A stretch of DNA of 60,220 nucleotides, counting the filler, from Hausera hauseri (taxonomy: Eukaryota), in the NCBI GenBank assembly GCA_046269625.1. It is 10 parts of 10 records of this genome, joined end to end, with 100 filler letters (N's around TTAATTAATTAA, not from the genome) between each part and the next. Parts side by side here need not be neighbours in the genome. Positions count along the whole stretch, not along the records: positions 20,752 to 32,351 come from JBJURY010085546.1; 9 more parts are not named here. The stretch is one strand, 5' to 3'. Of this stretch, positions 6,685-35,581 are shown in pieces; within the stretch, counting starts at the first letter, position 1; the number at the start of each line of letters is the position of its first letter. Below the pieces are notes generated by a model that saw nothing but the letters and a program-made list of their open reading frames with translations, had not been told where the DNA came from and did no database searches. Made by a program: the position numbers and the translations under genes.

Positions 6685-6687
6685 TTT

Positions 6688-13832: not shown

Positions 13833-14393
13833 GAAGAAAAGTGTTGACAGAGATGTGCTACAGATTCGCAATAGACATTGTCTCCAATCGATACGTATGA
13901 CGTTGACACTCTTTCTGTTTTATAGGTAAATTTCTGGTAATATATGGGATTTAATCTTGGATTAACTACATATTCACTTTTAATATGTTGAAATTTGTAC
14001 TCTATATTTTTTAATCCAAATTTCTGCGTCATCTCAGAAGACTCAAAGATAACAGTAAATTCAAAATCTGCCATAAAATGTAAGTTTTGATCTAAAATTA
14101 AAACACCAATTTTGCCGTGTGAACCGTAACTTGCTTCGGTCGTGCAAATGACCGATTCACCAACTGTTATTTTATTGTTAATAAGTGTCAGATTAACAGT
14201 CTTGTTGTACGTTATTTTCATACTACATTTGAAGTTCATCGGTGCGTAGGGAAAGTTCAATTCCGTCAGTGCAACCTCACATTTTCCAGATAAATCCAAA
14301 TGATTGTTCCAATCTACAACTTATTCACTGGCGGAATTGTTCCAAGGAATCATTGGACAACCTTTGCTCGACAACACCACGTAAATCCTCATG
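13833..14393 (-). pseudogene. Polinton minor capsid protein (second copy, cut by contig end)
   Basis: 'LDLSGKCEVALTELNFPYAP...YVSIGDNVYCESVAHLCQHFS' is closely similar to 217-810. Confidence 0.85.
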
Positions 14394-14431
14394 ATCTCGA
14401 TGATGATGATGATGATGAAGCCGTTTGTTTA

Positions 14432-15502
14432 TTATAGACGACGTCGAAAATGTAACGTCAAATGTGTCGTTGACTCACATAGACATTTAATGGTTTCCCA
14501 AAATTCATCAAGCATATACACGGAAATACTGTGCACAATATTGTGAGACAATAATAAGTACATGAGGCTGAGCATATAAACGCGAACAGTTTCACCCGAC
14601 GATGTTTTGTACGTATCAGAATCCAGTTCGATAGAAGCCAGTAGTTGTTTGTGTTCTCCACCAACGAGTACGAATTCGGTTAAGTCCGTTAAAATGTTGA
14701 TTCTACGAAATGCTTCAGAGAGTTGTGGTTTGTATTTGGCAACAATAGATCGTCCAACAATGTTTTGATAGAATTCGCGTTTTGAAAAACCAGATTCCGA
14801 GCTAATAATTCATCAACGGCAAAATATGTAATATTGTCATGGAGTGTAATCGAAATATGACCATCTGCGTTTATTTCACATGTCGTTATGGCTAATGTAG
14901 CCATTTTATTCACGTACTCACACAATTCCAGTTCCGTTTCCATTAGTAAATCATGTGGTATAATATATGAGCGGAAGACTGATTCTTACTTACTCCACTT
15001 TACCATAATATTGCATTCTGCATTGGATGAAAGGTCCAATTTTTCACCAATTATAACATGTCCACCTAGCCTTAGACGTTTTGAGTGTACATTGGCTGAT
15101 TGAAAACCCTATGCCTGAGCATCAGCTATATATTTAAACTGCATTCCAATGGGATTTCGACGCATTAGGTTCATACGGTAGTTTGAAAATTAAGCATAAA
15201 CCGAGAAATTTTGTCGCGAATAATTGCGAAGAGTATATCGGTTATTGTATCGGATTGTCCGCAAACGACTTGAAATAGGGTACGCTGCTCGTCGAGTAAA
15301 GTAAATATAACTGTTCTGACGTACTGTCATTGGTGAAAATGTAAATGTGCATTCGGTAAAGGCCCCTTCCCAGGCTCCCTAGCGTAAATAGATCGGTTGG
15401 TCCAAGTGCATAGTAAACTGTTTAGCGGTATTGTCATTGTCGTCGTGTTGTGATAATTATCTGTGACTATCAAGTACGAAGTAAATGATACTGCTGCTCA
15501 TT
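14432..15502 (-). pseudogene. Polinton minor capsid-like protein (first copy)
   Basis: Start 'IIYFVLDS..NTAKQFTMHLDQPIYL..AWEGAFTE'; end 'MYLLLSHNIVHSISVYMLDEF..THLTLHFRR'. Confidence 0.7.
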
Positions 15503-16530
15503 GAATCTGTGATGCACAAATCCAAATCGGTACAGTGTATCCGTGCCACTTGACGAGATATTGTTTATCCGAACCTTTGCCACGTGAACGTAGAATTTAC
15601 TGAATACAATGTACATAGGATTTTTCGGGCAGTACCTTCAGTTCCGGTTCGTAGAATTTACCGCGTATCTCCTCACCGTTTCCATCCTCTAAAACGTACA
15701 TGACAGGTGTTTGTTTTGTGTTGATTGCCGAAATGCTGAAAACCTCATCGCTCTAGTTCTGATTAAAATTCTTAATAAATGGCGTCGTACTTATTTTTTG
15801 TAATACGTACGTAAGCACCGATTTTATATTTTGGGCGTTTAATTGTCTGTCGATGTGTTCGGTTTTGATAAAGCCACATATCCAAATCATCGATTCCGTC
15901 AATCAGGCGCTTTCCGTTGATTCCACGGCGTGCAGGTTGATTGTATGCATGAATAATATCCGGCAGTACATCTACCCAGCATTTGTAGCCTTGATTCGTA
16001 AAGAATTTGTTTAGGCGACCGTATAATGTTAGATTAAATCGTTCAATAAGTATATCTTTGTATTGGAAAAACACCGAGTAGTGGTTTAAGCCGAACCGTT
16101 TAAAGACCGCTGCAATGTAGGCATTGTAGAAATCCTTACCCAAATCCGCTTGTAAATGCTTCGGCCGTTGTTGTTGTTGTATTAATGTCTGAACAGCCTC
16201 GGCAATCCCTTTACCAAATTTAGATTTTACGGTAATTGCACGTGCAAAAGGATTAAACACACCAATACATGTCAGCACCCTACTGATACCCATCGTTGAT
16301 GCTGACGTACGGAATCATTTCTATCATATCCATTTGCCATACATTATTTACACCGGCAGCACGGTATGCACAAGTTGGAAACCGCCTTCTTATCGGTTTG
16401 TTTAGGCTGTATGCTAACTGTTTCCCGAGCCAACGTTGGGTCTGCTACCGAGTCTGTTGACAGTCTTTGCCATTTTGTCGACACCAGTATGGCCGACGGG
16501 ATGACGCGGGTAGAAACACACATTGCCCAT
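15500..16530 (-). pseudogene. Polinton retroviral-like (rve) integrase
   Basis: 'YSLNKPIRRRFP', 'WQMDM', 'HLQADLGKDFYN', 'IERFNLTL', 'IRGKFYEPEL'. Frameshifted. Confidence 0.92.
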
Positions 16531-16674
16531 CGTTGCCGTTGATGATGTCGGTTTTGCTTGTATTACAACAATAAGAACGAAACGTAAATGAAAGATTCGG
16601 TAAAGTGGGACAGAAAGATGAAAACCATGCACCCATATCGCCGAATCATCATACATTTACCTTCATTGTTTATA

Positions 16675-16932
16675 CTATGCTGCTGAAGAACCAGTGAGTC
16701 CGCCCAGTAATGACGTGACAATCGGTAGAATTGCACCAAGAAATCCTCCGTCTTGCTGGTACACGACCTCTCGTTTCAGTCGTTTACTACGGGTGTTGGC
16801 AAGGCCAATGATTCGTTTCCGATACTTTAATAAATTCCGCTTTCCACTACCAATGTCAACGTGACCCACGACGATACTGTATAAAATTTCCATCAAATCG
16901 TCTACTGCAAACTGTGGAAATGATCGCAGCAT
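16675..16932 (-). CDS. Polinton small virion protein with C-terminal QxGGFL amphipathic peptide
   Basis: 'QQDGGFLGAILPIVTSLLGGL'. Lies between ATPase and integrase. Confidence 0.7.
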   Translation of the reverse strand: MLRSFPQFAVDDLMEILYSIVVGHVDIGSGKRNLLKYRKRIIGLANTRSKRLKREVVYQQDGGFLGAILPIVTSLLGGLTGSSAA

Positions 16933-17229
16933 GTTTCGCTTATGTCTAGTAGTGCCTTGAGCACTGTAATAAAATACGGCTGACTACGTTTGAATCTCAT
17001 GCTTTTTGGACGTATTGATGTCGATGAGACGTAGTTGTTTATAACCGTTGCCACTGTGACGGTAATTTGCGTCTAGTTGCTGCTGTTGTTTTTCGACGAA
17101 ACACAGAATTGATTAATCGCTTGACTGTAGCAGTGGTTTTTTTATACACGTTTATTGCCACCGGACACCCGCTAAGTAGTTTACGTTTAACAATTGTTTT
17201 TCGGAAATTTTTCATTTTTTATCATAATT

Positions 17230-17887
17230 ATGTCGTCGATTTTCGAATTTGTTTATAGACACATACACCATCTTTCTGATTGAAAATGTCTGTTCGTACA
17301 CGCATGTCATCGGAACACTGTTGTGTAAAGTCCATGAACAAGTATACGTGTGGTTCGGTCGTAGCATCATGATATGCATCTATCAAGTAGGCTCGATTGT
17401 AAGAAAATGCTTGTCATGCAACATAAACAATGATAGTCTGATCACGGGGATTTTTGAACAACACCAAATAGTGTACGTTTAGATTTCTTGTTCGATGTTG
17501 TCTGCCCTGATGGAACATGTTTTGCGTAATGAAAATAACCGTCACACCGCGGTGGCGTGCAGCCTTTGTGAATACGTTGTTGAAGTCCGATTGTTTCATT
17601 GCCTCTTAAAATAAATCGTCAATGACAATAACGTCACCGTTGCGTAATTTCTCTGACCAGTTCTCATCAAACCTATCAATTACCGTTATCGATTTCAGTT
17701 TACAAAATTCCCGTTGTGTCAAACCGGACTCACCATCATCACCAACACCCTGATGCCAGTTTATATGATTATACCGCGGTGAATGGAACATGCCACGGTA
17801 ATTCTGCAATAGTTTACACACAAAATGTAGTTTGCCATTTCCACTGGGGCTTACAATCTGGAAAATGGCATCATTCTGCAGCTTCAT
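17230..17887 (-). pseudogene. A32/FtsK-like DNA packaging ATPase
   Basis: Degenerate Walker A 'SPSGNGK', Walker B 'VIVIDDL', 'IFITQNMF', 'NVHYLVLFKNPRD'. Confidence 0.92.
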
Positions 17888-17982
17888 CTAATAATAGTAA
17901 TACAACCTTTCCTCGCAATATGATTTGTTTATAATCGTGTTGCACGCATATAAATAGCTATAGTATAAACACTGGTTCCATA

Positions 17983-18480
17983 ATGTTAGCTAATATTAAA
18001 ACTATCGCGGACATGGTACCGAGTGTGACATTAATATACTACCTTTTAAACAATGGAAGTCGAGACAATATGTACTCAAGTATCCACCTGATTTTGCATG
18101 CATCATATTTCAATAGGGAAAGTGTCATATTATGGGTTGTCGCAAACCAGTCACAGCTGACAACAGTAACAGTAAACTACTACCATTCGGAACTGTCATT
18201 GACAAAATCCAATCAATAACGGTAACGATTTAGGTAGACTACCACCAAACAATCAATCTGTACAAATTAGCAATGTCCACTGCTGAATGTACATATTAAC
18301 CCGAACTTTTTCCTGCATTGATACTGACCTCGTTTCGCCCACTCTGTGTCAATGTGTTCAGCAGTGGAAAAATTGTTGTACTCGGTATTCGGACAGTGGA
18401 CTATGAACAGATTATTAATCAAACTAAAAACCACATAAATATTTTACTGAATCAAAATAATATACATTGCACAGCAACAA
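17983..18480 (+). pseudogene. TATA-binding protein (TBP)-like
   Basis: Two repeats by hand translation: 'IIFQ*GKCHIMGCRK' and 'Y*PELFPALIL..VNVFSSGKIVVLG', compared with TBP 'YEPELFPGLI..IFVSGKVVLTG'. Confidence 0.75.
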
Positions 18481-18524
18481 CAAACTATAAATACCATTCC
18501 CATGCACATTCAGAAATTACTACC

Positions 18525-18890
18525 ATGGAAGACGACGACAACGACCAAAAAATTCTACTCAATGATGCCAATGATGAAAGTTCAGATTGGTCGTGGTTGT
18601 TTGGCTACAAAAAGGATAATTCTACTGTCAAAATGCTGGAACCACCTGTCCGACAATTAGGAAAACCGGGTGATTGTCTGCAGGTCAATTGTCTGGAAAT
18701 GAAACAGGAACTTGCTCAGAAAGCAGCAGCAGCAGCAAAACCGACGTTAAAAAGGGAAAATGCAATGATTGAAATACGTAAACGAAAATCAAAACCGTCG
18801 GCATGCCAAACAGATATTTTTACCGAAACGAATTTTTCGCAAGTACGAAATGCATTTTCTGCAAACACACGTACTGATTTCATTGAATGA
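18525..18890 (+). CDS. Polinton hypothetical protein
   Basis: Acidic N-terminus and a basic NLS-like 'RKRKSK'. No family recognised. Confidence 0.4.
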   Translation: MEDDDNDQKILLNDANDESSDWSWLFGYKKDNSTVKMLEPPVRQLGKPGDCLQVNCLEMKQELAQKAAAAAKPTLKRENAMIEIRKRKSKPSACQTDIFTETNFSQVRNAFSANTRTDFIE

Positions 18891-19290
18891 TCCCCTGTCT
18901 CTATGTGCACTCAAGTACAGCTATCGTGTAAAATGGCTTTCGGGTTAAAATTGCTTTCCATCAATTAAACGTAGATTTAAAGTTAAACAAAACGACCGTG
19001 CAAAAGCAATCTGTCGATTTACCAGCTCTGAAAACGAAACTGTTTGATTTTATTGGTCGCGGAATGTTTCATGTACCCGATGGCGATGATGGTTTAAAGT
19101 GTCCACTGAATACTGAATTGCAAGGATACAAGTAAAAAGCCGGTATCGAAAGCCCGATCTGGTGTGTAGTTGAATTACATTTTAATTATCAATAAATTTT
19201 GTTGTTTTACCGTTCTTCTTCTTCTTCTTTCATTAACCCAATTAACTAGTATAAATATACGTGTAATTTTAAAAAATATGCATAAGAATA

Positions 19291-19760
19291 ATGATAATGA
19301 ATGACATAAAGATTATCTTAACAGACGAAAACGCCTTTGTACCAAGACATGTTACATCAAACAGTGCAGGCTACAATGTGTTTTCCAATGTCAATACGAC
19401 AAATCCAGACAGCACAATCAAATGCATAACGACTGAGATTCGATTGGCGATTTCACCCGGTTACTACGGCCAACTTTTATCAAAAAGCGGATTGGCAAAG
19501 CTCGGACTGACAGTTGTGGGCGGCGGCGTCACTGATTCAGACTTTGGAGTTGAAATTAAGGTGTTGCTGGAAAACCAATCCGGGGAACCGTATGCTTTTT
19601 AGAAAGGCAGTGCAATCGCACAAATCGTTTTTCATCGCTGTGAAAAGGCGGAATTCAGTGTAATGTCACCGGAACAATGGGGACTGTTTTGTGTCAATGA
19701 ATCAACACGAAATGAACGCAAAGAATTCGGCTTTGGTGATATGGACAAAACCACCTGTTT
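19291..19760 (+). pseudogene. dut: trimeric dUTPase (premature stop at 19600-19602)
   Basis: Motifs 'SAGYNV', 'LSKSGLA', 'GVTDSDFG', then 'IAQIV' and 'R..EFGFG' in frame after the stop. Confidence 0.9.
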
Positions 19761-19839
19761 AATGATTGTGATGATAATAATAATAGTTAGTTGTTTTGTT
19801 TGTGTTACAAACAAAAAATGATTTTGTACATGATAAGTA

Positions 19840-20335
19840 ATGGCGACAGGATTTATAGATATTGAAGCTTTCCAATATGATAATGCCCGGCGCATAATAA
19901 AAGAATTATGCATTATGGACGTCGGTAACATTTTCAAACCGCTTGTGTACATATTCAAGCCCGGTGTTGTGTAGAAATGCATGACGGAAAAGACGAAATT
20001 TACAAACGGATTTCTCTTTCGACATCGTCATAAACTTCATTGGTACGAAGACGATTCAATTTTCTGTGTGCCGTGTGTTATGGGAGAGATTTGGGATCGT
20101 TTTGACACTGAATATACAATATTTTAAATTAAAGATCAAATTGACGGATAAAAGTTTACACATCTCCATTCACAGTTTCCCGAATTGCGAAGAATGACGT
20201 ATTCAACAATATCGAACAGCTCGCTGGCGATGGTATCTGACAATATGAGATGTCCGTATCGTGATCATGGACCTCAATTTGCTTACAAAAAATGTCTACG
20301 GCTTTGTATTGACTATATTCCATGCAAATAAGTAA
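19840..20335 (+). pseudogene. DEDD-family 3'-5' exonuclease-like Polinton accessory gene
   Basis: Hand translation 'MATGFIDIEAFQY..IIKELCI..YIFKP..N.FL..HRHKLHWY', with in-frame stops. Confidence 0.7.
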
Positions 20336-20864
20336 ATGTATTTCTATGTTATTTCTCTGTTCAAAACTTAAATTCAGATAGGTTATAATAAAAATAATCA
20401 TGGGCTATAATGGAAATTGTACACGTTTATTACAAATGACTTCAGTAACATGGCAGTAATTTGTACATTGCAATATGATAATACTCACGAAGTAAATGTC
20501 TATTGTTTACAATGAAAACAAACCAGTATGAACAAAATTTATATAAATATTGATGCAAATTTATTTCACATTTTTCTTCTTTAAACAATGTCTTTGGAAA
20601 ACAATTCAGGAGGTGACAGTTCCGTGAGACTCACAAAAGAATCAAAGTACANNNNNNNNNNNNNNNNNNNNNNNNNNNNNNNNNNNNNNNNNNNNTTAAT
20701 TAATTAANNNNNNNNNNNNNNNNNNNNNNNNNNNNNNNNNNNNNNNNNNNNACGCAATGGTGTTATTTCAGATCGGCATAAAGTCCGAGAATCATATAAA
20801 TGGTATGATGTCCAAAGTTTATTAACAACTCGACGGGGGTTCCGAGAAATTTGTCCCAAATTGA

Positions 20865-22301
20865 TCACTGGTCCAACATGATAGGCATGTGGACATATTT
20901 GCCTGTGGATTTGGATTTGTACCGTATGGCATCTGGCTCGTATATCTCGTCATCCAATACCAGGGTTTCATCCACCTGGATTTTACGTTTACTTCCACTT
21001 TGTGTTATCGTGGGTGTTTTTCGCACCGTATCGGAGGCCGTTCTTTGTATAATATATTCATCAGACCATTTTAATTGTTTGTATATTGATTGATAGCACT
21101 GCGCTAAGGCAGTGCTTCGGAGAGAGAAACCCTTTGTGTCGTAAAACTTCCGGGCAAGTTCTTTGAAGGTACTAGAGGACAATTGGTACCGGCGGATAAC
21201 TTCTTCGTGATATAAGATATCACGAACTCCAGCTATCCGTCGGATGGGACATTTGAGATGGTTAACAACCATCTCTACTACGTCGGCTCCGATGATCACT
21301 TTGTCCGTTAGTATTTCCGTTACCCTTCGATAAAAATCCATGGGATCGAGCTGGTTATTGATACTGGATTCGGTAAGGCCTGTTATGTGTGTATCAAAAT
21401 TATTGATACGCTGTCTTGGTGTAATGATGCCATAGAATAAGGTATCTCCGTTTAACGTTAGAATCGAGGCTTCGATAGGTTGAAGCTGATTCCACTGGTC
21501 ATAGGCCAGATTCACGGCTGCTATGACCAGATCTTTATCTGTTACTTTTTCCAGTCTTCTATAAGGAATGTTCTTATATTTTACATAGTCGGGTTCTGGA
21601 AGATGAAAACACTTTCCTTCAGGTAGGCTGGGGTACAATTTTTCTCGTTTAATAACTTCCATAGCTAATATTACTCGATTTGTACACGAGCGGATTTTGA
21701 ATATATTGTTTTGGAGGAAGGTATAATCGAACGCCAATGCATGTTCGTGCTCCATATTAATTAAATCGCCTCTAATGGATGTTTTCCTGTCTGTGGTCTT
21801 TATCTGAATCTGACCTACCACGCTGTATAGGTTCATTGAATGAAACCGTTCTGGTAGAATAATGATATCTTCCAAGAGAAACGATGTAGGCTTTGTGAGT
21901 TGTATTATAGCGAAAGACCGATTAGCCATACTGTATCCTTTTATATTGTTAGGAATTTGTGGCGTCTGGGGATAATTTAAACTCGTCATGTTATCGTTAT
22001 GCGATATGAAATATTGATTGGAAGGATTAGCATTGATCATATGATTTTTGACGTTGCTGAACCAGTGTTTGGAGCGGTTGATTGTCTGTATCTGGTGGAA
22101 CGTCGTAACTGATACTGTAAAAATAAGAGTCAAGACATAATTTATCACAATACTTAAATACAATACAACGGTTATCACATAAGCCAGGGGGGTAATCGTT
22201 GTAGTTTCATTATTATTATTTCTATCGCATAAGATAACTTTATGTCTTTTAGTTATCTTTTTATTTGGGGTTGCGTCTATTGCAATCCCTAAGAATAATT
22301 G
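20865..22301 (-). CDS. in-frame readthrough extension: hydrophobic segment plus ISG20/REX4-like exonuclease fold
   Basis: 41 stop-free codons link the TGA at 22302-22304 to ORF 20865-22178. Exonuclease-like core 'EASILTLNGDTLFYGIITPRQRINNFDTHITGL..VTEILTDKVIIGAD..RDI..FKELARKF'. Confidence 0.75.
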   Translation of the reverse strand, partial: QLFLGIAIDATPNKKITKRHKVILCDRNNNNETTTITPLAYVITVVLYLSIVINYVLTLIFTVSVTTFHQIQTINRSKHWFSNVKNHMINANPSNQYFISHNDNMTSLNYPQTPQIPNNIKGYSMANRSFAIIQLTKPTSFLLEDIIILPERFHSMNLYSVVGQIQIKTTDRKTSIRGDLINMEHEHALAFDYTFLQNNIFKIRSCTNRVILAMEVIKREKLYPSLPEGKCFHLPEPDYVKYKNIPYRRLEKVTDKDLVIAAVNLAYDQWNQLQPIEASILTLNGDTLFYGIITPRQRINNFDTHITGLTESSINNQLDPMDFYRRVTEILTDKVIIGADVVEMVVNHLKCPIRRIAGVRDILYHEEVIRRYQLSSSTFKELARKFYDTKGFSLRSTALAQCYQSIYKQLKWSDEYIIQRTASDTVRKTPTITQSGSKRKIQVDETLVLDDEIYEPDAIRYKSKSTGKYVHMPIMLDQ

Positions 22302-23690
22302 TCAGCTGGGGTTGTCGATATCCAACGGGTTCGTTAGATTCCGCATGTCAATTCTAACCCAGCTCCTGTTTCGTTTGAGTCGCCTACATGCGAATCTACT
22401 TACTATTATTACTATGATTATCAATACTACAGGGGTTATGGTTCCTATGCATATTATTTCTAACCGCGAATACTTATACGCTGTTCGTGGAGGTTTAAGT
22501 GTTATCTTATGAGTAATCGTCTTGGTCCTATTACGTACAGTTATGTCATACTTTATTTTCGTTATCGCTGTCATTATCTTAGTGGAGGTTACTCTATCTG
22601 TATCGTCTAGCAATTGTAAAATTATTGTGTATTGGGTGTTCGAGTCTAGAGCTGCACATGGTGCTACCAAATCATCCGGGGTTATTATTCCTTTAGCGAC
22701 CACTATTTCTTGTTTCTTACAAGAGAATTTAATCTTGACAAAATCTAGGTCCGGTCTGACTGAGATGATTAATGCAGATGGGGCTGCTATTATAGTGACG
22801 TTCTCCCATATAGATCGTTTCGCCCGATAATAAGATGAGTAAGGCTTAACTAATATAGTCATTTCTCTTTTATCAGTCGAGGGCTGTTCAGAAGATACTA
22901 TATTCTTTTCGGGCATATCGTTGTATTCTTTAGGGTTTTTATATCGTATATACATAGTCGGTCCTTTTCTATGCATCTTATTCCTTAATTTTCCGTATTC
23001 CTTTCGTGACAAGGTGTACTTTACTTCGTATATTCTACCTCTTGTTACATTACAGCAGACCTGTTGTTGTTCTTCTGTTATCTCGCATTTCAACGATGGC
23101 TGTTCTTTTCCTGTGTCTTTTATGGATATTGTTATCCATCGGATATATTCTAATTCTATCAAGCTCCTAATTTCTAGACAACTTCGTCCACTTTTAAATC
23201 CCATTGGTCTTATCTTCACCTGTTTAAGTATTATTTCATCGAGCAATGTATTATTCATTTCTTGTCTATGCGGGACTCGCATGTATTTATGGAACTTAGT
23301 ATATAAACTATGATAAAAATCTCCTTGTTTCCTTATGAGTGTAAGATGCACTTCGTGTGTTCCTGAGGTGTGGATGGGGCATATTCTTTCGTTTATCGAT
23401 GATCGTAATATACAATCATCATTTAACTCACCAGAGTGTTTCTCATAACCGTAGATGGGGATTGTTCGTATTCTTATAATGTACTCGCCAGGCATTCGTC
23501 TTGTGGCATACCAGTGAATACATTTTTGACCTTTCATAGAGTAGGTTATTTGGTATTCTAAACTTTTTAACCATAAATCTTCGTTTATGGCTGCAGCATG
23601 TCGTATCTTCGCTTGTTCAATTTTTTGTTCTGTCATCTGTCCGGCTATTTGAGGTAATACATAAATGATGGTTAACAATAAACTCTTCAT
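22302..23690 (-). other. post-integrase domain: signal-like peptide, Cys-containing FN3-like ectodomain, TM helix, short tail
   Basis: 'MKSLLLTIIYVLPQIAG', tyrosine-corner-like 'LDSNTQYTIIL', TM 'IICIGTITPVVLIIIVIIV' followed by 'SRFACRRLKR'. Confidence 0.65.
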
Positions 23691-26600
23691 TGCCCCGTAC
23701 CTCTTATAGGTAGATTTTTCCGTTCTTACTTTTTCCTTTATGCTTAATATCCTTTCTTTTTCATTCCTTAACTCACTTTCTCGGGCTGCTGGTTTACATC
23801 TGTTGATATGGACCTTCACCGATGTATTATTTTTCTTTAAACATATATTTGGTAAACTTACTTTCTCTACTTCATACGGGCCTTTGTAAGGTCTATCCAG
23901 TTTAGAGGTTTTACCCTTTTTTATAGCTGGGGAATATAACATAACTTGATCACCTATTTTGATTTTTGGCTGTTTAGTCTTCTTATCGTAGTATTTCTTG
24001 TATTTGGATTTATACTCCTCTTGATTTCCACAAATCGTTTTGTAGGCTAATTGGAGACGTTCTTGCATTAGTTGTTTATAGTCCTCCACTTCCATTAAAT
24101 GTGAGACAGGTCTCACATTAAAGTCTAAGTCAATGGGTAATCTTGCGTCTCGTAAGTACATTAAATAAAAGGGAGTTTCCTTAGTGGCTTCATGTACTGA
24201 CGTTCGGTTTACGAATACACACGCATTGACATACTCGTCCCAGTCGTCCTGTCTGGTGTTTACTACTGTTTGCAGTTTTCCTTTTAAATCTCCAATATAT
24301 CTCTCAACTAATCCATTGTTTTCTGGGTGTCCTGGTGTGGAACGTAGCTTCAATATCTTTAAAATGTCATAAATTGACTGCATTACAGTTCCCGTTAGAT
24401 TTGAGGCCTGGTCAGTTAAAATAATTCTTGGGGCTCCGTAATTAAACACTACATTTTCCACAAATTTTTCAGCGATTGTGTCGGCCTTCATATCTGCCAT
24501 CGGTATGGCTACAACCCATTTAGTAAAGTAGTCAATAAAGACTAAGATATATCGGTTCCCATTCCGAGTTAATGGTAGTGGTCCCGTTATGTCCATTGCC
24601 GTAAATTCAAATGGTGCCGGGGGATTATCCCATACCTTTAATGGTGCTTTAAATTTGGATCCGGTGTTTTTTCGTGTGGCACATAACTTACAACTTTCAC
24701 ACCACTCTTGTACATCCTTCATCATAGTAGGCCAGAAATACTTTCGTTTTAATTTATTGAACGTCTTCCTGGGTGACTGGTGTCCACCGAGCAATCCATC
24801 ATGATATTGTGTTAACAGTACTGGTCTATTTTTCTTTGGGATTACTAACGCTGGTCCGTCTTGGTGAATATAGTATAAAAATCCATCTTTTTCCTCATAT
24901 GCCTCACCAAATCGTGCTAAGTGTCTGGCTAATTCGTTATCTTCTGGTAATACCTTATTCCTTATGAAATTTCTAATTATTTTTATTTCGAAGTCTTCCT
25001 GTTGGTTCTGTTTAATCTTTTCTACTGATCCATCCATACTCCATACTGCTGCTATTACTTCTTTCTTTACCTTTGGGTTTTCTGTCATTCTGGATAGATA
25101 GTCCGCATTGGCATTTCTCGTTCCAGGTTTATACTGGAAATTCAACGTGTACGGTTGTAGTTTCAGCGCCCATCGTAACAATCGGCTATTCGGATTTTCA
25201 TGTTGCTTCAACCACTGTAATGGTCGATGATCCGTATATATTATTAGTGGTTTATTTTCACTAATATAGGGTGAAAATATTTCTAAGGCGAATATTACAG
25301 CTAGCAGTTCCTTCTCAATCACGGCATATTTCTTTTGATGCTTGTTGAGTTTTCGTGAGGCATAGGCTACTGGGTGTTCCTTACCATCGTCACCCTTTTG
25401 TGATAGCACTGCTCCGACTCCATAATCGCTTGCGTCTGTGGCCAATATGAATGGTTTGTTCATATCTGGGTAGATTAATATTGGGGCAGTTACTAGTCTT
25501 TCCTTCAAGTATTGGAATGCTTTTTGACAATCGGTCGTCCAAACTACTGTATCTAGGTCCTCACGTAATAACTCATATAGAGGCTTTGCAATTTTACTAA
25601 AATCCTTTATAAACCTCCGATAATAATTTGCTAAACCTAAGAATCGACGTAGTTCTCTAACCGTTGTCGGTTTTGGGAAGTCTTTTATTTTTCCTAATAA
25701 TTTATCCTGTGGTTTCACACCATATCTGTCTACTCTATGGCCTAGAAAATCTACTTCTGCCTGAGCAAAGGAACATTTCTTCGAATTTATTTTCAGACCC
25801 ATGATCTCACACCTATCAAACAGGTCTTGCAGATCTTTCAAATGTTGTTGAAAATTGGGTGATGCTATTATTACATCATCAATGTATACCATGGCATGTG
25901 GGGCGTCCAATAATAGCAGTTCCGTACCTCTCTGAAATGTTGGTGGTCCATTCTTTAGCCCAAATGGCATCCTGTTAAATTCCCATAGTCCTTCTCCAAT
26001 GGAGAAGGCTGTCTTGGGTTTATCTTCCTCCTTTACTTCTACTTGCCAATAGCCTTTTTGCAAATCTATTGTTGAGAATATAGTTGATCCGTGAAGTCTA
26101 TCTAATATCTCATCAATCCTGGGCAAGGGATACGTATCCGTTTCAGTGATCTCGTTTAATGCTCGGTAGTCTATGCAAAATCTCATAGTTCCGTCCTTTT
26201 TCTTGACCATTACTACCGGGGCTGTCCAAGGGGAACAACTTGGTCGGATTATTTTGTTTTCCCTCATTTCCTTTATTATTTTTCGCGCTTCTTGTTTTTT
26301 ATCGTACGCTAATCGATATGGTCTCTTTTTGATTGGATTGTCCTGTCCTTTTTTCAATTTAATAGTATGTTGTATCACATTCATTGTACCTAAATCGTAG
26401 TCATTCTGCGCGAACCGGGCATTATTTTTTTGTAATAATTCTATTAGCGTCTTCTTTTCTTCTTGTGTTAAAATTTGACAATTATGTAACTTCTCGTGCC
26501 AATTAATATTAGTTGTTTTAATCTTCTTTAATTTTTCACTCGGTTCTCCTTTTAACTTTTCTTTCATTAATTTTTCTATTTTATCTATGTCAGACATTGT

Positions 26601-29600
26601 TGAGTTTGTTTCTTGTTTCACTATCCCTTCACTGGTTATAACTTCGCCCAGTCTTGTGTTCTTTCGTAGTCTTCTTTCTCTATTGGTCGTATTACAAATT
26701 CGTAAATGAATTTTTCCTTCTCTTACTTTGTCTACATGAGGCGCTATTAAAATTTCATATTTTTCCATCACTTGTGCAAAGGGTTCAAAGCACACCTCTG
26801 TTGATAGTATTGAACTTTCTATCTTTCCAGGCACTATTATTTCGGATCGGGGTGGTATTATGATATCTTTTGTTAACGCTACCTTTCCTCTACTTTTGTC
26901 TTCGTCAAACATTTTCAATTGGCTGGTTTTCACATCTATATACACATTTTCTAATTGGCTTAATACGTCACACCCGATTAAGATTTCGTTCGTTAAATTA
27001 TCGGCTATTCTTATCATATGTTTCACGATTTGATTGCCGATTTTAATATTTGCGTCAAGAACCATTTTTATTTCTTCTTCCGTACCAAACGCTCCTACAT
27101 TTATTAACGTAGTCTTTGGTCTCCGTAACTTCCTTTTCAATTCCTTAGGTAGTAGGCTTTTTCCCATTATCGTGGTGGTGGATCCAGTATCTAATAGAGC
27201 TATCATGGGATATCCGTTCACTTCGATTTCTATTTCTGGCCTTATAGATGACCTTTCTTCTTTGTCGTCGGTCTTATACGTAGGTTCATGTCTATATAAT
27301 CTTACGCCTTCTTCGAAGTCTTGTCGCATTTGTAATACTTGATCTGTTGGATACAATCCTGCATGCACTACGTATCTAGGAGCTGAAGGATTCGCTATAA
27401 GTTGTTCATTATATGGTTGTCCATGATACTCGTCTATAGGATCTAAATGCGGTAGATCGGTCACGAGCTTGTGTCTGTATTTCGATTTTCGTGTCTTTAA
27501 CATTATTTGTCTAATATTAGGTATTCTTTTATGTTCTGTCTTTGTCCTTCCTTGATCATAGTGGGTGTCATCATTATCAGGTATGCTATACACAGATTCT
27601 TTATTATCTCTCTTCTGTAATACTTTCTTCTTCCATCGTGCATCGTGATTCGCTAAGAAGCAACTTGCTACAGCTGGTATCACTGCTATCAGTATTTTCC
27701 ATGAACACCCTACTGCTGCGTGTATTCCATATGCTTTACCGAGGGCCGTAAATATTGTTCGTAGCGCGCTAATAATGAAATATATGGCCAGAAAACCCGA
27801 CGCTGCTTGTCCAAAATATAAGAACTTTCCCCACATCTTCTCCATGACATTTCTTGTTACTTTCTTCAAATAATCTTTACCCATAAGGTTTTCCCATTGT
27901 GGTGATCCTTCGCCGTCCCACATGACTCTCCGAGTCAGTTCGGTTATTACTCGTTGTCTTTGTTGTGGGAATAGTAACATTCGTCGGTAATCCTCTAAGT
28001 TTTGTTGGGTATATATTCCTCCTTGTGATATTTCTGTCAATGGCTCGAATTTCTGGTTTCTTTGGAGGTTAATCAAACTCAGTGTCTCTGGTTTAGACAC
28101 TGGTTCTCTTTTCGGCATCCTTATCCATTTGTCATTATCGATTTTAAACATTGGTGACATACTAAAAGTGCAGTTATATAAGGGAGTGGGCTTTACATGT
28201 GCATCAAGGAGTATCCTCGTTACTGGCATGACATATCGCGTTTCTGACTGGTAGACAACAGGTAATTCCATTATACATTCTTCCGTAGGTCTGATTGATA
28301 CTTCCACTTTCTTACATTCTATAGTTATTAAGACCTCGCCCATCACTCGTCCGATAACTCCGTCGCCAAAAGGTAATACTGGCGCTACCATGTCCGGATT
28401 CGTTATCACCAACGCCATTTTATTACGCATTATTTCGTAATTTAACTTGCATTCATTCATTATTATTTCTCGGTATAAACCTCTGATCTCTTTCCTTACG
28501 TAGTTGATCAGGAAATCTATTTTATTGTCAAAATATTGAGTCAGCTTTATGTCTTTCTTATCTACTTTAGTCTTCGCTCCTATTATTTCCTTTCTTGATA
28601 GGTAGATGCCCTTATAATTAGTCTTTGACATTTCTTCATTACATTTAGTTATCACACCCGTAATTTTAAATCGCATCATTTCTTCTGGATTCTCTGAATA
28701 GACAATTGTAGCTACTTCATTCATCTTAACTTCCTTTGTTCCCTCTTTATACGTTGCCGTCTCTTTTTCTGCTGTCTTCCCTACCGTCTTATTAAACTTT
28801 CCTTCTTTCAACAATGTCAACTGACATTTGCTTGCGGTTGTTTCCCAAGTCATTTTTGACTCTCCCGTATCGCATTCACCATTATCGTATTCACATTCGT
28901 TCATCGTTGTCATCAATTTTGTTTGAGAATCGAATAATCCTTCGTATTCTTTTAACTGTACCTGATAATCTTCTATGGCCACTGTTCTAGGTGCGATAGT
29001 GCCTCCAACGTCATAATCCACTCCTCTACAGGTTCCCTCCATTGTCTTATCTATCCGTCCGGCTCTAAAAACCCTCGTGTATTTTACTCTGTTTCTTACT
29101 GCCGGTATATGTGCATTCTGTATGGTTATAATGCCAATCTTAAAGGCATCCTGGCATTCTGCTCGGGATATTATTATCGGCTCGAAGGGTGTTGTAGGTT
29201 CAATTATGGCTGAATTTCCTGAGTAATATGCACAATTAAATAAGAAGAATGATTTCTTTACATAGCATTCTCTAATCTTTGTTTTTATAAATTCGGACTC
29301 TTGATATACCCAGTACGCAAGGCCGCTGGTGGTTGTCAGTTGTTCTGGGTCGGCTTCTGGACATTTTTCTAAATCAACCAACGAATACTTTTGTCCTTCT
29401 CTGGGTTTGGAACAGTCATATGCTATAATTCCTACGGCTTTTGGCAACAACAATGAGGTGATTAACAGAATTTGTATGATTTCCATTATTGACATGCCCG
29501 TTATACCTGTCCGAGGCATCGTTGCTTGTGTCCCCGTTGATCTATCTCTTCCTCGTTCTTCCGTCCTGGTTATGTTCGTCATCAGACTATTGAGCCATCC

Positions 29601-32045
29601 ACCTCTGCATTGAGCCCAATTTCCTAAAGTATCCTTTAAAATCTTCACGACTGTTTTTATATTCCGTTCTATTTCTTCCAGGTTTTGTGTCTGATGATTG
29701 ATTACTATTATTTTATATAGTAAATAAGATATAGCCGTTTGGACCTTTTCCCGCGTAATGCCTGTGGCGAACATCTTTTCCAAAATATCTAATTCGTGCA
29801 GCTCGTTTATCCTTTCCTCTTCTAAATTTTCGTAAAATTGTCTGCTTATTCTCAACACATTATTACGTAGTGTATTAAATACTTCTTCCGGAATCGTTGC
29901 CTGGGTATCAAAAGAGGCAAATGATGTGTGCATCCTTGCCAGTAACGTTCTTAATAAGGAATCTATGTCTACCGATTCAGGATTACCATCTGTTCCTGCT
30001 AATAATAAACGCCTTACTATTTCTTCGTTCCTATCTTTCCTGTTGCGAATATCGCTTATTTTCGTTCCTCTTGGCCTGCCTCTTCTCTTTGCTTCATTTT
30101 GAACCGTTGTATCTCGCATATCGCACATGGGATTTTCCACCTCCCGTGGTTCCGTTCGTCTTATAATTTCTTCCACCGTTGCTTGTGCTCTCGCCTCAGG
30201 GTGTATTTCAATTATGTTTATCGGATTATAATTTTCACTTCTACACCCGATTCTCAATAATCGGTCATAACTGTACAAAGTCCTTCCATAATAACTTAGT
30301 CCATAATGGTTATCTTGATAAAATGGTTCTAGCTCTTCTATCTTATTTCGTAACGTTAATATATCGTCTATTTCGTTCAGTCGGATAATCCTTATATCTT
30401 GATTCCCTTCTTTTATTGTTATTCTAAGAGGTTCATTTCTTCCTTTCCTTTCCTCTGCAGCTTCGGCTAATACCGTCCTAGCTATTTCTTTTACCGGACT
30501 AGTATCATGGGCGAGTAGTACTAATTGCGGTAACATCTCGTTCAATTTTTCCGTCGTCATTTTACTTGTGATGGTTTTTAGTATTGTCACGGTTGTTTTA
30601 TCTACGTCGACTATATTATTAGGGTCAATGGCTAACACGGCTTCTATAATATCGTCTTCCTCGTCCAAGTCTACTCCTGGATTTCTTATTACTTGATCCA
30701 ATACGGTATCATCAAAAATGGGCGTGGCCTGTGTTTCTTCCGGACTAAATGAGGGTAAGGGAGTACTGGGACTACTCTTTTTTCTTCCCCTTTTCTTTTC
30801 TTTTACTATCTCTTCCCTCTCTGTTGACGTTTCTCTTGATTCAATTTCTTCATCAATTATTTTTTTGTTACCTTTCTTTTTTCCTTTGCGAAGGGCCTGT
30901 TTCTCCAATGGGTCACCTACCATGTAGGTATTACTTTCTTTCAACCTCTGCTGTTGTCTCTTATATTCTTTTACTTCTATTTCTAACTGTTTCTTCATGC
31001 ATGGGGATAATGAATTACTTATATAATTAATACTTTCTTTCTTCTTGTCTTTCTTTTCAATTTCTCGTTCACTGGCACTATCCTCCGTCTCGTATTCTCT
31101 ATCGGACGATTCATCTGATGTGGCGGATACATTATCTTTTTTTTGCTTATTCTTCTTTAGTTTTAAAGAGTCCTTTTGACGCGACCTGCATGATTTTGCT
31201 ATGTGTCCATACTTATTACAATTGAAACATTTTAATCTTCCTTCGGAGTCTATACTGGGTAATGATCTTCCATCTTTCTTATATTTCTTTTTGTAACTTG
31301 TTTTTTCTCCGTTATTTCGTAAATTAAATCTTACTTTCTTTTCTCCATCTGATTCAGCTTCTGTTGCTGACGTTTGTGACGGACTTCTATTCCTTTCATA
31401 TCGTTGGTACTTCTGCGTACTATTGTTTCTTCCTTTATCGTTCCCATTATTACTATTTCTGGCTTTGTTCCATCTATATAGTTCTGCATCCCTTTCAGCT
31501 TTTCGTGCTTTTCTTATTGCTTCTTGAAACGTTGGCGGGTCTGCTTGAGAGATTATCATTCGCAGTCTTTCCTCTAGTCCATATTGGAACTGGGCTAACA
31601 GGGCGTTATTCCGTATCGTAACGTCTGGGTAGGCTCTTGCTGCAAGTTTTTCCAATGCACATACAAAGTCCTGGACGGATTCATCTTTTCGTTGCCTTCG
31701 TCTTATAAATTCTTCAATTCGTCCCTTTCCAGAGGGATCTATCAAAAACTTCTGAGGCAGCTTTTCTTTTATATCCTTCCATTCTTTCTTTTCCTCTTCA
31801 GGCAGTTGGAAATAAACCATGAGAGCCGTTCCTTTCAAATGAAGGGGTAACCGTTCTACTCTCTGCTTATCGTCCCAGCCAAAACTTTTGGAATACACCT
31901 CGTATTCCATCATAAAATCTTGAATATCTTCTTTGCCAGAGAACTTTTTCATGGGGAGGGTGAAATCAGCTTTTGACTGAATCACCTGTTCTACTTTATT
32001 ACTTGTCATCGTTTCTTCTTCGCTTAGGTTGTCAAGATATTCCAA
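22302..32045 (-). CDS. 3247-aa Gag-Env(glycoprotein)-Pol-membrane protein polyprotein
   Basis: Gag with CCHC knuckle (31188-31229), signal peptide plus AYDC glycoprotein, PR 'LLDTGS' (27183-27191), RT 'YIDD' (25875-25886), RH 'TDAS/EKE/TDH/ADYLSR', IN HHCC plus D,D,E and 'GPY', C-terminal TM. Confidence 0.97.
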   Translation of the reverse strand: MEYLDNLSEEETMTSNKVEQVIQSKADFTLPMKKFSGKEDIQDFMMEYEVYSKSFGWDDKQRVERLPLHLKGTALMVYFQLPEEEKKEWKDIKEKLPQKFLIDPSGKGRIEEFIRRRQRKDESVQDFVCALEKLAARAYPDVTIRNNALLAQFQYGLEERLRMIISQADPPTFQEAIRKARKAERDAELYRWNKARNSNNGNDKGRNNSTQKYQRYERNRSPSQTSATEAESDGEKKVRFNLRNNGEKTSYKKKYKKDGRSLPSIDSEGRLKCFNCNKYGHIAKSCRSRQKDSLKLKKNKQKKDNVSATSDESSDREYETEDSASEREIEKKDKKKESINYISNSLSPCMKKQLEIEVKEYKRQQQRLKESNTYMVGDPLEKQALRKGKKKGNKKIIDEEIESRETSTEREEIVKEKKRGRKKSSPSTPLPSFSPEETQATPIFDDTVLDQVIRNPGVDLDEEDDIIEAVLAIDPNNIVDVDKTTVTILKTITSKMTTEKLNEMLPQLVLLAHDTSPVKEIARTVLAEAAEERKGRNEPLRITIKEGNQDIRIIRLNEIDDILTLRNKIEELEPFYQDNHYGLSYYGRTLYSYDRLLRIGCRSENYNPINIIEIHPEARAQATVEEIIRRTEPREVENPMCDMRDTTVQNEAKRRGRPRGTKISDIRNRKDRNEEIVRRLLLAGTDGNPESVDIDSLLRTLLARMHTSFASFDTQATIPEEVFNTLRNNVLRISRQFYENLEEERINELHELDILEKMFATGITREKVQTAISYLLYKIIVINHQTQNLEEIERNIKTVVKILKDTLGNWAQCRGGWLNSLMTNITRTEERGRDRSTGTQATMPRTGITGMSIMEIIQILLITSLLLPKAVGIIAYDCSKPREGQKYSLVDLEKCPEADPEQLTTTSGLAYWVYQESEFIKTKIRECYVKKSFFLFNCAYYSGNSAIIEPTTPFEPIIISRAECQDAFKIGIITIQNAHIPAVRNRVKYTRVFRAGRIDKTMEGTCRGVDYDVGGTIAPRTVAIEDYQVQLKEYEGLFDSQTKLMTTMNECEYDNGECDTGESKMTWETTASKCQLTLLKEGKFNKTVGKTAEKETATYKEGTKEVKMNEVATIVYSENPEEMMRFKITGVITKCNEEMSKTNYKGIYLSRKEIIGAKTKVDKKDIKLTQYFDNKIDFLINYVRKEIRGLYREIIMNECKLNYEIMRNKMALVITNPDMVAPVLPFGDGVIGRVMGEVLITIECKKVEVSIRPTEECIMELPVVYQSETRYVMPVTRILLDAHVKPTPLYNCTFSMSPMFKIDNDKWIRMPKREPVSKPETLSLINLQRNQKFEPLTEISQGGIYTQQNLEDYRRMLLFPQQRQRVITELTRRVMWDGEGSPQWENLMGKDYLKKVTRNVMEKMWGKFLYFGQAASGFLAIYFIISALRTIFTALGKAYGIHAAVGCSWKILIAVIPAVASCFLANHDARWKKKVLQKRDNKESVYSIPDNDDTHYDQGRTKTEHKRIPNIRQIMLKTRKSKYRHKLVTDLPHLDPIDEYHGQPYNEQLIANPSAPRYVVHAGLYPTDQVLQMRQDFEEGVRLYRHEPTYKTDDKEERSSIRPEIEIEVNGYPMIALLDTGSTTTIMGKSLLPKELKRKLRRPKTTLINVGAFGTEEEIKMVLDANIKIGNQIVKHMIRIADNLTNEILIGCDVLSQLENVYIDVKTSQLKMFDEDKSRGKVALTKDIIIPPRSEIIVPGKIESSILSTEVCFEPFAQVMEKYEILIAPHVDKVREGKIHLRICNTTNRERRLRKNTRLGEVITSEGIVKQETNSTMSDIDKIEKLMKEKLKGEPSEKLKKIKTTNINWHEKLHNCQILTQEEKKTLIELLQKNNARFAQNDYDLGTMNVIQHTIKLKKGQDNPIKKRPYRLAYDKKQEARKIIKEMRENKIIRPSCSPWTAPVVMVKKKDGTMRFCIDYRALNEITETDTYPLPRIDEILDRLHGSTIFSTIDLQKGYWQVEVKEEDKPKTAFSIGEGLWEFNRMPFGLKNGPPTFQRGTELLLLDAPHAMVYIDDVIIASPNFQQHLKDLQDLFDRCEIMGLKINSKKCSFAQAEVDFLGHRVDRYGVKPQDKLLGKIKDFPKPTTVRELRRFLGLANYYRRFIKDFSKIAKPLYELLREDLDTVVWTTDCQKAFQYLKERLVTAPILIYPDMNKPFILATDASDYGVGAVLSQKGDDGKEHPVAYASRKLNKHQKKYAVIEKELLAVIFALEIFSPYISENKPLIIYTDHRPLQWLKQHENPNSRLLRWALKLQPYTLNFQYKPGTRNANADYLSRMTENPKVKKEVIAAVWSMDGSVEKIKQNQQEDFEIKIIRNFIRNKVLPEDNELARHLARFGEAYEEKDGFLYYIHQDGPALVIPKKNRPVLLTQYHDGLLGGHQSPRKTFNKLKRKYFWPTMMKDVQEWCESCKLCATRKNTGSKFKAPLKVWDNPPAPFEFTAMDITGPLPLTRNGNRYILVFIDYFTKWVVAIPMADMKADTIAEKFVENVVFNYGAPRIILTDQASNLTGTVMQSIYDILKILKLRSTPGHPENNGLVERYIGDLKGKLQTVVNTRQDDWDEYVNACVFVNRTSVHEATKETPFYLMYLRDARLPIDLDFNVRPVSHLMEVEDYKQLMQERLQLAYKTICGNQEEYKSKYKKYYDKKTKQPKIKIGDQVMLYSPAIKKGKTSKLDRPYKGPYEVEKVSLPNICLKKNNTSVKVHINRCKPAARESELRNEKERILSIKEKVRTEKSTYKRYGAMKSLLLTIIYVLPQIAGQMTEQKIEQAKIRHAAAINEDLWLKSLEYQITYSMKGQKCIHWYATRRMPGEYIIRIRTIPIYGYEKHSGELNDDCILRSSINERICPIHTSGTHEVHLTLIRKQGDFYHSLYTKFHKYMRVPHRQEMNNTLLDEIILKQVKIRPMGFKSGRSCLEIRSLIELEYIRWITISIKDTGKEQPSLKCEITEEQQQVCCNVTRGRIYEVKYTLSRKEYGKLRNKMHRKGPTMYIRYKNPKEYNDMPEKNIVSSEQPSTDKREMTILVKPYSSYYRAKRSIWENVTIIAAPSALIISVRPDLDFVKIKFSCKKQEIVVAKGIITPDDLVAPCAALDSNTQYTIILQLLDDTDRVTSTKIMTAITKIKYDITVRNRTKTITHKITLKPPRTAYKYSRLEIICIGTITPVVLIIIVIIVSRFACRRLKRNRSWVRIDMRNLTNPLDIDNPS
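23790..27250 (-). other. pol: Pol region: protease, dUTPase-fold-like spacer, RT, RNase H, integrase
   Basis: All catalytic motifs are present, in Ty3/Gypsy order. Confidence 0.97.
27650..29495 (-). other. env: chuvirus-like (class III) envelope glycoprotein domain
   Basis: Internal signal 'MEIIQILLITSLLLPKAVG', mature start 'IIAYDC..YSLVDLEKC', Cys-rich ~550-aa ectodomain with 'GEVL..C..VEV..C..ELPV', 'PVTRIL', and a C-terminal 'WGKF..FG..SGFLAIYFII..AYGIH..VGCSWKIL' matching my recollection of chuvirus-type G. Confidence 0.8.
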
Positions 32046-32140
32046 TCCAAAAGGTATATTTTCTTCTTTTTGGTATATTGTCCCTTTTCTGGTAGTTATT
32101 TTGTTTCTGTTTATCTATAGGTCCTAACAAATTTATAGTG

Positions 32141-32159
32141 TTCCCGGGTCACGGCACCA
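32141..32159 (-). promoter_or_regulatory. primer binding site, tRNA-His
   Basis: Minus-strand TGGTGCCGTGACCCGGGAA is complementary to the tRNA-His 3' end (...GUCACGGCACCA), 3 nt after ...AACA. Confidence 0.9.
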
Positions 32160-32162
32160 GTT

Positions 32163-32351
32163 TGTTCAATTTTTCCTTTGTGATAAATTATTATAATGAA
32201 AATAAAGATATAATATTTTTTTATCTCTTTGAACAATTTAAGCGTGGAGGTTGGGAGAGCAACTATGAGGTGTATCTTACCTAAACAAGTACGTAATGTG
32301 TTTCAAGGAACGTGAATGACGTTAGACAATTCGTTATTTACTTAAGGATTA
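32163..32351 (-). repeat. 5' LTR, partial (U5 end)
   Basis: Ends in AACA just before the PBS. Cut by the linker. Confidence 0.8.
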
Positions 32352-32614
32352 NNNNNNNNNNNNNNNNNNNNNNNNNNNNNNNNNNNNNNNNNNNNTTAAT
32401 TAATTAANNNNNNNNNNNNNNNNNNNNNNNNNNNNNNNNNNNNNNNNNNNNTATTACTCGGTGGAGAATGATAATTTGGCGAGTTATTGATTGTTTTTCC
32501 TGCACAAAGTGGGTCAATACTTGATATGGGACTTAATTAAGACAGATAAGTGGTCATGTGGGCCTGATTATTGCTTGTAAAGTTTATAAATATCACGCAT
32601 GCACGGACGACAAC

Positions 32615-32697
32615 AAAAGGCTGATTTAATTTACAAGGTTTTGTTTATTTACGTTAAAAGGCGGATTTAATTTACAATGGTTTTGTTTATTTACGTT
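32615..32697. repeat. two-copy ~41-bp tandem repeat containing minus-strand AATAAA
   Basis: aaaaggctgatttaatttacaaggttttgtttatttacgtt / aaaaggcggatttaatttacaatggttttgtttatttacgtt, just downstream of the minus-strand gene block. Confidence 0.8.
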
Positions 32698-33315: not shown

Positions 33316-33403
33316 TTTGAAACAGAAGGACCCTCTGGTTGTGTGTGAATTGCTTATATACCGTTATAACCGGTTTATGCTGGATGTGTGACGTCATAGA
33401 TAT

Positions 33404-33818: not shown

Positions 33819-33825
33819 CTTTATT

Positions 33826-35118: not shown

Positions 35119-35139
35119 GTCCTTTAATCAAAGATGTCT

Positions 35140-35578: not shown

Positions 35579-35581
35579 CTT

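Follow-up and report, generated by a model that had tools for sequence, protein, structure and literature searches.

Introduction

What does a retroelement polyprotein encode when its frame does not end at the integrase? This question is raised by a Burro-like element of Hausera hauseri (assembly GCA_046269625.1) that has a gB-type Env ahead of Pol and whose open frame continues for hundreds of residues after the GPY/F module. Retroviruses and errantiviruses are thought to combine binding and fusion in one Env. GAG-ENV-POL elements with a gB-type Env occur in flatworms, nematodes and bryozoans, and how they enter cells is described as unexplained, since herpes gB needs partner glycoproteins (main text of PMC13524379). 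An earlier note, made from the DNA alone, proposed that the extension after integrase is a second membrane protein, either for attachment or as a receptor decoy. Here we examine whether this protein is real, what it is predicted to look like, how far it extends among relatives and what it may do.

Results

The element is of a known enveloped kind

The window, meaning the whole stretch of 60,220 nucleotides that was analysed, consists of ten contigs joined by N spacers, and the element occupies the minus strand of the contig at 20752-32351 (JBJURY010085546.1; Table 1). This contig stops within the element at both ends, which bears on paired LTRs and on target-site duplication, and no second LTR was found on it. 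The PBS-like site is presumably of the tRNA-His type; no tRNA genes were found in the window. The Pol order PR-RT-RH-IN with a GPY/F module is a Ty3/gypsy (Metaviridae) feature, as are the Gag capsid (here with a score under the cut-off) and the CCHC knuckle, and all of these are present. Of the two hydrophobic segments in the Env membrane region just one would presumably span the membrane if Pol is to lie in the cytosol.

Table 1. Features of the element and of the region downstream of its stop (window coordinates).
Feature	Position	Strand	Basis and remarks
Probable 3' part of 5' LTR	32161..32351	-	Inferred: directly 5' of PBS-like site, cut at contig end (N spacer 32352)
PBS-like site TGGTGCCGTGAC	32148..32159	-	Precedes ORF
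Single ORF, 3,270 codons stop to stop	22302..32114	-	First ATG at 32009 (3,235 aa)
Gag capsid (Ty3_capsid)	31473..31952	-	Pfam E 3.4e-4, under curated cut-off
CCHC zinc knuckle (zf-CCHC)	31185..31232	-	Pfam E 2.9e-4
Bcl-2-like domain, weak	29580..29897	-	Pfam Bcl-2 E 1.7e-4, under cut-off; BOK 6ckv E 0.006
Internal signal-like segment 1, ahead of Env	29430..29495	-	KD19 2.16
gB/chuvirus-type (Monjiviricetes) fusion glycoprotein ectodomain	27807..29429	-	PF24664 aa 878-1520, E 1.3e-89
Env membrane region, two hydrophobic segments	27651..27797	-	Hydropathy
Aspartic protease	26949..27242	-	Pfam
Reverse transcriptase and RNase H	25149..26207	-	Pfam
Integrase: H2C2 finger, core, GPY/F module	23790..24842	-	Pfam and sequence reading
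Charged linker, 33 aa, integrase to signal 2	23691..23789	-	Sequence
Internal signal-like segment 2, aa 2809-2825	23640..23690	-	Hydropathy; predicted cleavage after IAG, inferred from small-residue pattern
Module 1, Cys-containing, repeat of module 2	23265..23639	-	Module 1 vs 2 P 0.0015
Module 2, weak member of family FN3-like repeat	22920..23255	-	1/500 shuffles reach score
Furin-type site RAKR, aa 3097-3100	22815..22826	-	Motif, just ahead of module 3
Module 3, predicted fibronectin type III with conserved Cys pair	22527..22814	-	AlphaFold2, Foldseek, VIA-align, profile
Short basic stalk, moderately Thr-containing	22458..22526	-	Composition
Predicted TM helix, about aa 3220-3239	22398..22457	-	KD19 3.17
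Basic stop-transfer and predicted cytosolic tail, 31 aa	22305..22397	-	Sequence; 8 K/R in 20 residues after TM
TGA then CAA TTA (CARYYA leaky-readthrough context)	22296..22304	-	1/31 long-frame stops in window; chance 0.0026 per site
In-frame 478-codon ORF	20865..22301	-	Hydrophobic segment aa 39-66; ISG20/REXO-like exonuclease-like region

The element belongs to the Burro-like, GAG-ENV-POL gB-type errantivirus kind, which is a known one. In Burro/GYPSM1 of planarians a single huge ORF encodes Gag, then a BCL2-like motif, an in-frame Env between BCL2 and PR, and PR-RT-RH-IN (Burro section of PMC6431247). Gene order is the same here, including the BCL2-like motif directly before the in-frame Env (a weak match in this case), and relatives in the clade have ubiquitin-like and ankyrin domains. 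However, with 3,235 aa against 4,873-5,140 aa in Burro as given in that section, and with no Pfam match in the ORF to ankyrin, BIR, MATH, ubiquitin or dUTPase, all of which have their like in Burro, the element is filed as Burro-like and not as Burro. The Platyhelminthes C1a errantiviruses (Smed_errantivirus_1-6) also place a gB-type Env between gag and pol, and by eye the Env domain I-II motifs and Cys spacing here match the six Smed C1a rows, a comparison that concerns Env only (PMC13524379). On this match, a flatworm is the likely host. In its passages on these elements that paper gives one Env per element and no second surface protein, and its main text has neither of the words 'fibronectin' and 'accessory'. 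A second membrane protein after integrase was likewise found neither in the Burro section of PMC6431247 nor in the literature searched, and the primary Burro paper, Repbase, figures and bioRxiv supplements may mention one.

The Bcl-2-like domain sits directly ahead of the Env signal segment (29430-29897 for the two together, minus strand). By analogy with cellular Bcl-2 proteins, segment 1 could stay behind after signal cleavage as the C-terminal membrane anchor of this domain. Similar segments were also seen by eye in P0005, P0014 and P0020 and at window 52924-53400.

The extension has the predicted layout of a second surface protein

The continuation of the frame for about 460 aa past GPY/F, as claimed in the earlier note, is borne out: M2809 starts at position 23690, 33 aa past the end of the GPY/F module, and 462 aa of the 3,270-codon open frame then lead to the TGA at 22302-22304. 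The signal-like hydrophobic run described after integrase was found as MKSLLLTIIYVLPQIAG, with a top 10-residue hydropathy of 2.56 and four K/R in the preceding 12 residues; this segment was called from hydropathy and charge pattern. At the other end, the TM helix and the basic stop-transfer are both predicted as had been described (values in Table 1). The ectodomain between them has nine Cys and 4 N-glycosylation sequons, and the tail of this copy has no Tyr and no PDZ-type end (it ends in DNPS). The Thr-rich stalk fared less well: Thr accounts for 10 of its 44 residues, but the initial half of this stretch is the predicted strand G of an FN3 domain, and the actual linker before the TM helix (~26 aa) contains 5 Thr and 8 K/R. 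A Thr-rich mucin stalk was consequently rejected for this copy. Two features absent from the first description are the RAKR site (aa 3097-3100) and the UGA-CAA-UUA context of the stop.

The frame is real and appears to be selected

The window is made of short joined contigs and the extension alone finds no homolog, both of which would fit a frame that is open by chance, an assembly error or the passive capture of a host exon. Nevertheless, a 495-codon open frame has a chance probability of about 7e-17 at this composition. The integrase-signal junction is bridged by contigs from public runs of different studies (X1 record 4 with 0 differences, X3 record 17 with 2 differences) and the stop by contigs in two runs (X1 record 3, X2 record 10); X1 may be the window's own source, and the junction contigs bear on assembly, not on expression. 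Extension variants among the diverged X1 and X2 copies were 24 silent and 14 replacing with 0 stops, where the same change spectrum predicts 9.8 silent out of 38, and 24 was reached in 0 of 20,000 simulations. As these 38 variants are from the best 40 of about 300 differences, they are indicative of purifying selection on the extension and do not amount to a full dN/dS. The same layout is moreover present in 15 of 18 relatives (see below), so that an accidental, mis-assembled or passively acquired frame is largely refuted and extremely improbable.

Searches with the extension alone returned 4,089 candidates among 5.8 billion proteins, none with E<=0.001, and one spurious Cys-repeat match (P0123) among 1.84 billion representatives. 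An alignment of the module matched 0 of 7,989 longer proteins, which is weak evidence as it covers 427-2,000 aa only. No cellular donor was found in these sequence searches with the extension or the module alignment. Altogether, the analysis confirms that the predicted second surface protein is real and clade-wide, indicates that it is selected, and shows that it belongs to an element of a known enveloped Ty3/gypsy kind.

A predicted fibronectin type III fold for module 3

The earlier note had described about three beta-rich, Cys-containing modules and suggested structure prediction with Foldseek as a check; this reading stands for module 3, which is predicted to be a fibronectin type III domain; modules 1 and 2, which are repeats of each other with pLDDT below 50, are without a supported fold. 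With a 10-row alignment, AlphaFold2 modelled module 3 at pLDDT 74-93 except for one loop (module 2, <50). In Foldseek, FN3 domains rank first for module 3 (24 matches with E<=0.001; probability 1.00 vs 10Fn3 and Tencon), VIA-align superposes it on fibronectin with Z 10.2 and an rmsd of 2.2 A over 80 aligned residues, and a profile built from the relatives with this ORF left out matches it at E 2.4e-8. The L..NTQY.I.L motif, rightly called FN3-like, is found at aa 3156-3166 within this module. The tyrosine corner L-x-x-x-T-x-Y is a feature of FN3 domains, and its L and Y are invariant in 12 of 12 alignment rows. Pfam fn3 matched none of 12 members, divergent members being expected to fall under that profile, and the best PDB hit in a sequence search with the module profile had E 0.34. 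Module 1 does not match the family profile significantly (49/500 shuffles reach its score), and a single-sequence fold gave a mean pLDDT of 35.9 with no Foldseek match at E<=0.001.

With the fibronectin type III superfamily (10Fn3, tenascin, CD45, cytokine receptors, FNDC5) the module shares the predicted beta-sandwich and the L-x-x-x-T-x-Y corner, and the protein shares a type I layout with a cleavage site. In contrast to these, it shows 6-19% identity, no Pfam fn3 match, a family-specific invariant Cys pair and no WSxWS, and no identifiable donor for the module was found. In Atlas features it resembles FNDC5, FNDC9 and cytokine receptors at 0.87-0.91, a weak indication (recognition 1855). 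WSxWS is the motif of class I cytokine receptors, and none of the 18 ectodomains carries it; given also the 31-aa tail, which has no Tyr in this copy, a signalling receptor was rejected. A Foldseek row for the Env of walleye dermal sarcoma virus (E 0.013, rmsd 46) hints at a possible precedent for an FN3 domain in Env, on which we do not rely.

The slot after integrase is kept across a clade while its ectodomain changes

Relatives were collected with an Env-to-end query, and 23 of the 120 listed proteins were examined for the extension; the other 97 are mostly pseudoscorpion gene models, five of which served as tree outgroups. Eighteen examined relatives form a 19-member clade with this ORF (support 99/92 for RT-RH and 94/90 for integrase), within which this ORF has a long branch and a position that differs between the two trees. 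Env lies ahead of Pol in 15 of the 18, the other three beginning too late to judge. A signal segment follows integrase in 17/18 relatives, accompanied by a TM helix and tail in 15/18; P0026 and P0031 finish with a short stretch of weak hydrophobicity and have no cytosolic tail, and P0006 has an Env and no post-integrase protein of this type within its ORF. Two related gB-type elements of other layouts, P0098 and P0109, have no such extension. With the predicted signal and TM topology present, and the extension in 17/18 clade relatives, the analysis supports the proposal of two surface proteins, with membrane anchors on either side of Pol. Since no Met lies within 15 residues ahead of the signal core in 10/17 relatives, signal 2 is likely an internal signal, a spliced message being also possible. 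Sequons are three times denser in the ectodomains (1.9 per 100 residues, 96/5,067) than in Pol (0.6, 88/14,848).

What fills the slot varies. An 88-aa module with the Cys pair and L-x-x-x-T-x-Y occurs in 1-3 copies in 11/18 relatives, P0026 and P0031 have an Ig domain, P0013 and P0016 a small Cys-rich domain, and P0007 and P0020 a sequence without an assigned domain; a furin-type site is found in 4/18 ectodomains. Between close pairs, ectodomain versus Env identity is 57 vs 94, 42 vs 95, 44 vs 64, 30 vs 53, 23 vs 69 and 24 vs 53%. The ectodomain is thus swappable (FN3-like in one to three copies, Ig, Cys-rich) and diverges much faster than Env. A fixed position and topology with an exchangeable, fast-changing, adhesion-type ectodomain points to a host-binding surface, and rapid divergence and domain swapping do not separate attachment from decoy.

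An immune decoy or receptor mimic would act on producer cells, probably shedding modules 1-2 at RAKR, and would soak up a cytokine-like ligand or block a receptor. FN3 with a TM helix and no signalling tail, the furin-type site, the rapid divergence, the weak Atlas neighbourhood of cytokine receptors and FNDC5, and the presence in the clade of Bcl-2-like, ubiquitin-like and ankyrin domains, which are typical host modulators, would all suit such a role. We nevertheless consider it unlikely: WSxWS is absent from all 18 ectodomains, no cellular homolog was found by sequence, whereas captured decoys usually retain the likeness of their donor, and production in equal amounts with Gag would better suit a structural protein.

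The C-termini bear on another function. A class I PDZ-type end, [ST]-x-V, is found in 8/17 relatives and a final Val in 11/17, as could be expected if the tail directed assembly to a single membrane domain or to a cell contact and the ectodomain served cell-cell adhesion for direct spread; the adhesion-type folds and the anchors on both sides of Pol would fit as well. However, this copy ends in DNPS, P0026 and P0031 have no cytosolic tail and a pure scaffold would not need a fast-changing ectodomain, so that a budding-site or trafficking scaffold appears quite unlikely.

In two elements outside the clade, P0116 and P0111, the frame continues past integrase through a chromodomain-like region into an env-like glycoprotein; there, a fusogen occupies this slot. 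This canonical env position would accord with a replaced-env remnant, in which the post-Pol slot kept its signal and anchor and the ectodomain now only blocks the element's own receptor (superinfection exclusion). But Pfam detected no fusogen remnant, and blocking a receptor requires binding it, which overlaps with attachment; superinfection exclusion, or such an origin, is very unlikely.

Ankyrin or ubiquitin matches were obtained in 4/12 scanned relatives. Between integrase and signal, many relatives have extra protease-like domains and two have ankyrin repeats. The former are aspartic-protease-like with a D-[ST]-G motif in P0006, P0007, P0008, P0011, P0012, P0013, P0015, P0071 and P0092, some of which carry such a domain also between Env and the main protease; those after integrase sit at the point where a cut would be needed to release integrase from the second signal. 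P0017, a clade member annotated as a Flavobacteriaceae MAG protein, most likely stems from animal DNA that was binned with bacteria. No related loci were found in viral contigs, and metagenome contigs yielded 8 distant integrases. A planarian nidovirus with FN2 and ankyrin domains is a loose parallel (PMC6211748).

The stop is in a leaky context ahead of an exonuclease-like ORF

CARYYA is the type I readthrough motif and works after UGA too (PMC3542737). Downstream of the TGA, 87 open codons precede the next Met, as seen in 0.1% of shuffles, and the RNA folds somewhat better than shuffles (z -2.7). The 478-codon ORF matches ISG20L2 at E 0.32 and has a homolog at window 6691-7422 (E 1e-6); Atlas gave no usable match. 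By eye, its exonuclease-like region seems to be without the first acidic catalytic motif. SIRE1 shares an in-frame stop after pol, which lies between pol and env and is described as subject to stop suppression (PMC2194720), whereas here readthrough would follow the second membrane protein. Bdelloid LTR retrotransposons likewise have TM-bearing and DEDD-exonuclease ORFs downstream of pol; their TM-bearing ORF3s, however, are separate ORFs that replace env, while here the second membrane protein accompanies Env in frame (PMC5408684). Readthrough of UGA-CAA-UUA into the 478-codon ORF is a lead only.

Other contigs of the window

Broken relatives of this Env-Pol type were found on three further contigs. 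Window 39151-43437 and 47793-55814 (minus strand) hold frameshifted, stop-bearing Env-Pol copies of the family with about 30-45% protein identity. On the broken contigs at 8451-13732 and 4050-8350 (minus strand), a signal-like run lies at 12296-12697, a tandem pair of 60-nt copies at 12913-13032, an ORF with ankyrin (Pfam E 2.8e-6) at 9108-9623, an exonuclease-like ORF at 6688-7422 and the start of a gag at 4002-4436; these contigs probably represent the 3' accessory region of related elements. Polinton/adintovirus-like gene fragments (capsid-like, protein-primed polymerase-like, integrase, dUTPase-like) were recognised by eye at 1-3949, 13833-20651, 32452-39050 and 55915-60220, where 13833-14602 is an 83% inverted duplicate of 1-812, and Tc1/mariner-like transposase fragments, also by eye, at 45862-47199 (minus strand).

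Discussion

The polyprotein would have to cross the ER membrane repeatedly. Signal 1 would send Env into the ER and the Env anchor would bring the chain back to the cytosol for PR-RT-RH-IN, which demands that the two hydrophobic segments net one span. Signal 2 would then reopen translocation, signal peptidase would free the ectodomain, and the TM helix with its basic tail would halt transfer. Such alternating signals and anchors, comparable to those of flavivirus-type polyproteins, would place Env and the second ectodomain on the lumenal side of the ER and keep Gag and Pol cytosolic, with integrase tethered by signal 2 until the element's protease cuts inside the 33-aa linker. The mature second protein would be a type I glycoprotein of ~445 aa. 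A furin-type protease would likely cut at RAKR and, since module 3 has no spare Cys, modules 1-2 would be held non-covalently or shed. As it would be produced 1:1 with Gag and Env and at the same membrane, the second protein may be packaged in budding particles and there bind a host surface molecule, much as gD and gH serve herpes gB.

We therefore favour, at slightly less than an even chance, the reading that the last part of the polyprotein would mature into a further surface glycoprotein of type I, carrying FN3-type domains and likely serving the gB-type fusogen as attachment partner; it is the predicted 1:1 production with Gag and Env that favours attachment over decoy, scaffold and exclusion. 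The signal-ectodomain-TM layout kept across the clade, the exchange of ectodomains, their divergence far above that of Env and the adhesion-type folds of the alternatives (Ig in P0026, P0031) argue for attachment. Other facts argue against it: class III fusogens such as rhabdovirus G need no partner for attachment, P0006 has an Env without such a protein, P0098 and P0109 are without the extension, fast divergence suits a decoy equally, no fold is supported for modules 1-2, just 4/18 have the furin site, and the PDZ-type ends of 8/17 relatives suggest a task within the producer cell. In favour of attachment again, HSV gB needs gD/gH/gL and the entry of gB-type errantiviruses is described as unexplained (PMC13524379). 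Herpesviruses and this element both have a class III fusogen and a separate beta-sandwich surface protein (here a predicted fold), a functional analogy with no homology claimed; here, however, both proteins come from one polyprotein and their partnership is putative.

At its broadest, and rather more doubtfully, the clade could be a retrovirus-like invertebrate lineage whose entry machine consists of two proteins: a conserved gB-type fusogen before Pol and, after it, an exchangeable receptor-binder (FN3 in one to three copies, Ig or Cys-rich) that sets tropism, both from one polyprotein crossing the ER membrane repeatedly, with leaky readthrough adding a nuclease-like product. If true, it would give the first LTR retroelements with fusion and attachment split between two proteins. 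The polyprotein layout implies that newborn integrase is membrane-tethered, an unusual processing problem. Should the protein be a decoy instead, it would provide a probe for immune ligands of the invertebrate host. As it stands, the fast-changing, domain-swapping second protein offers a concrete and small candidate for the missing gB-partner part.
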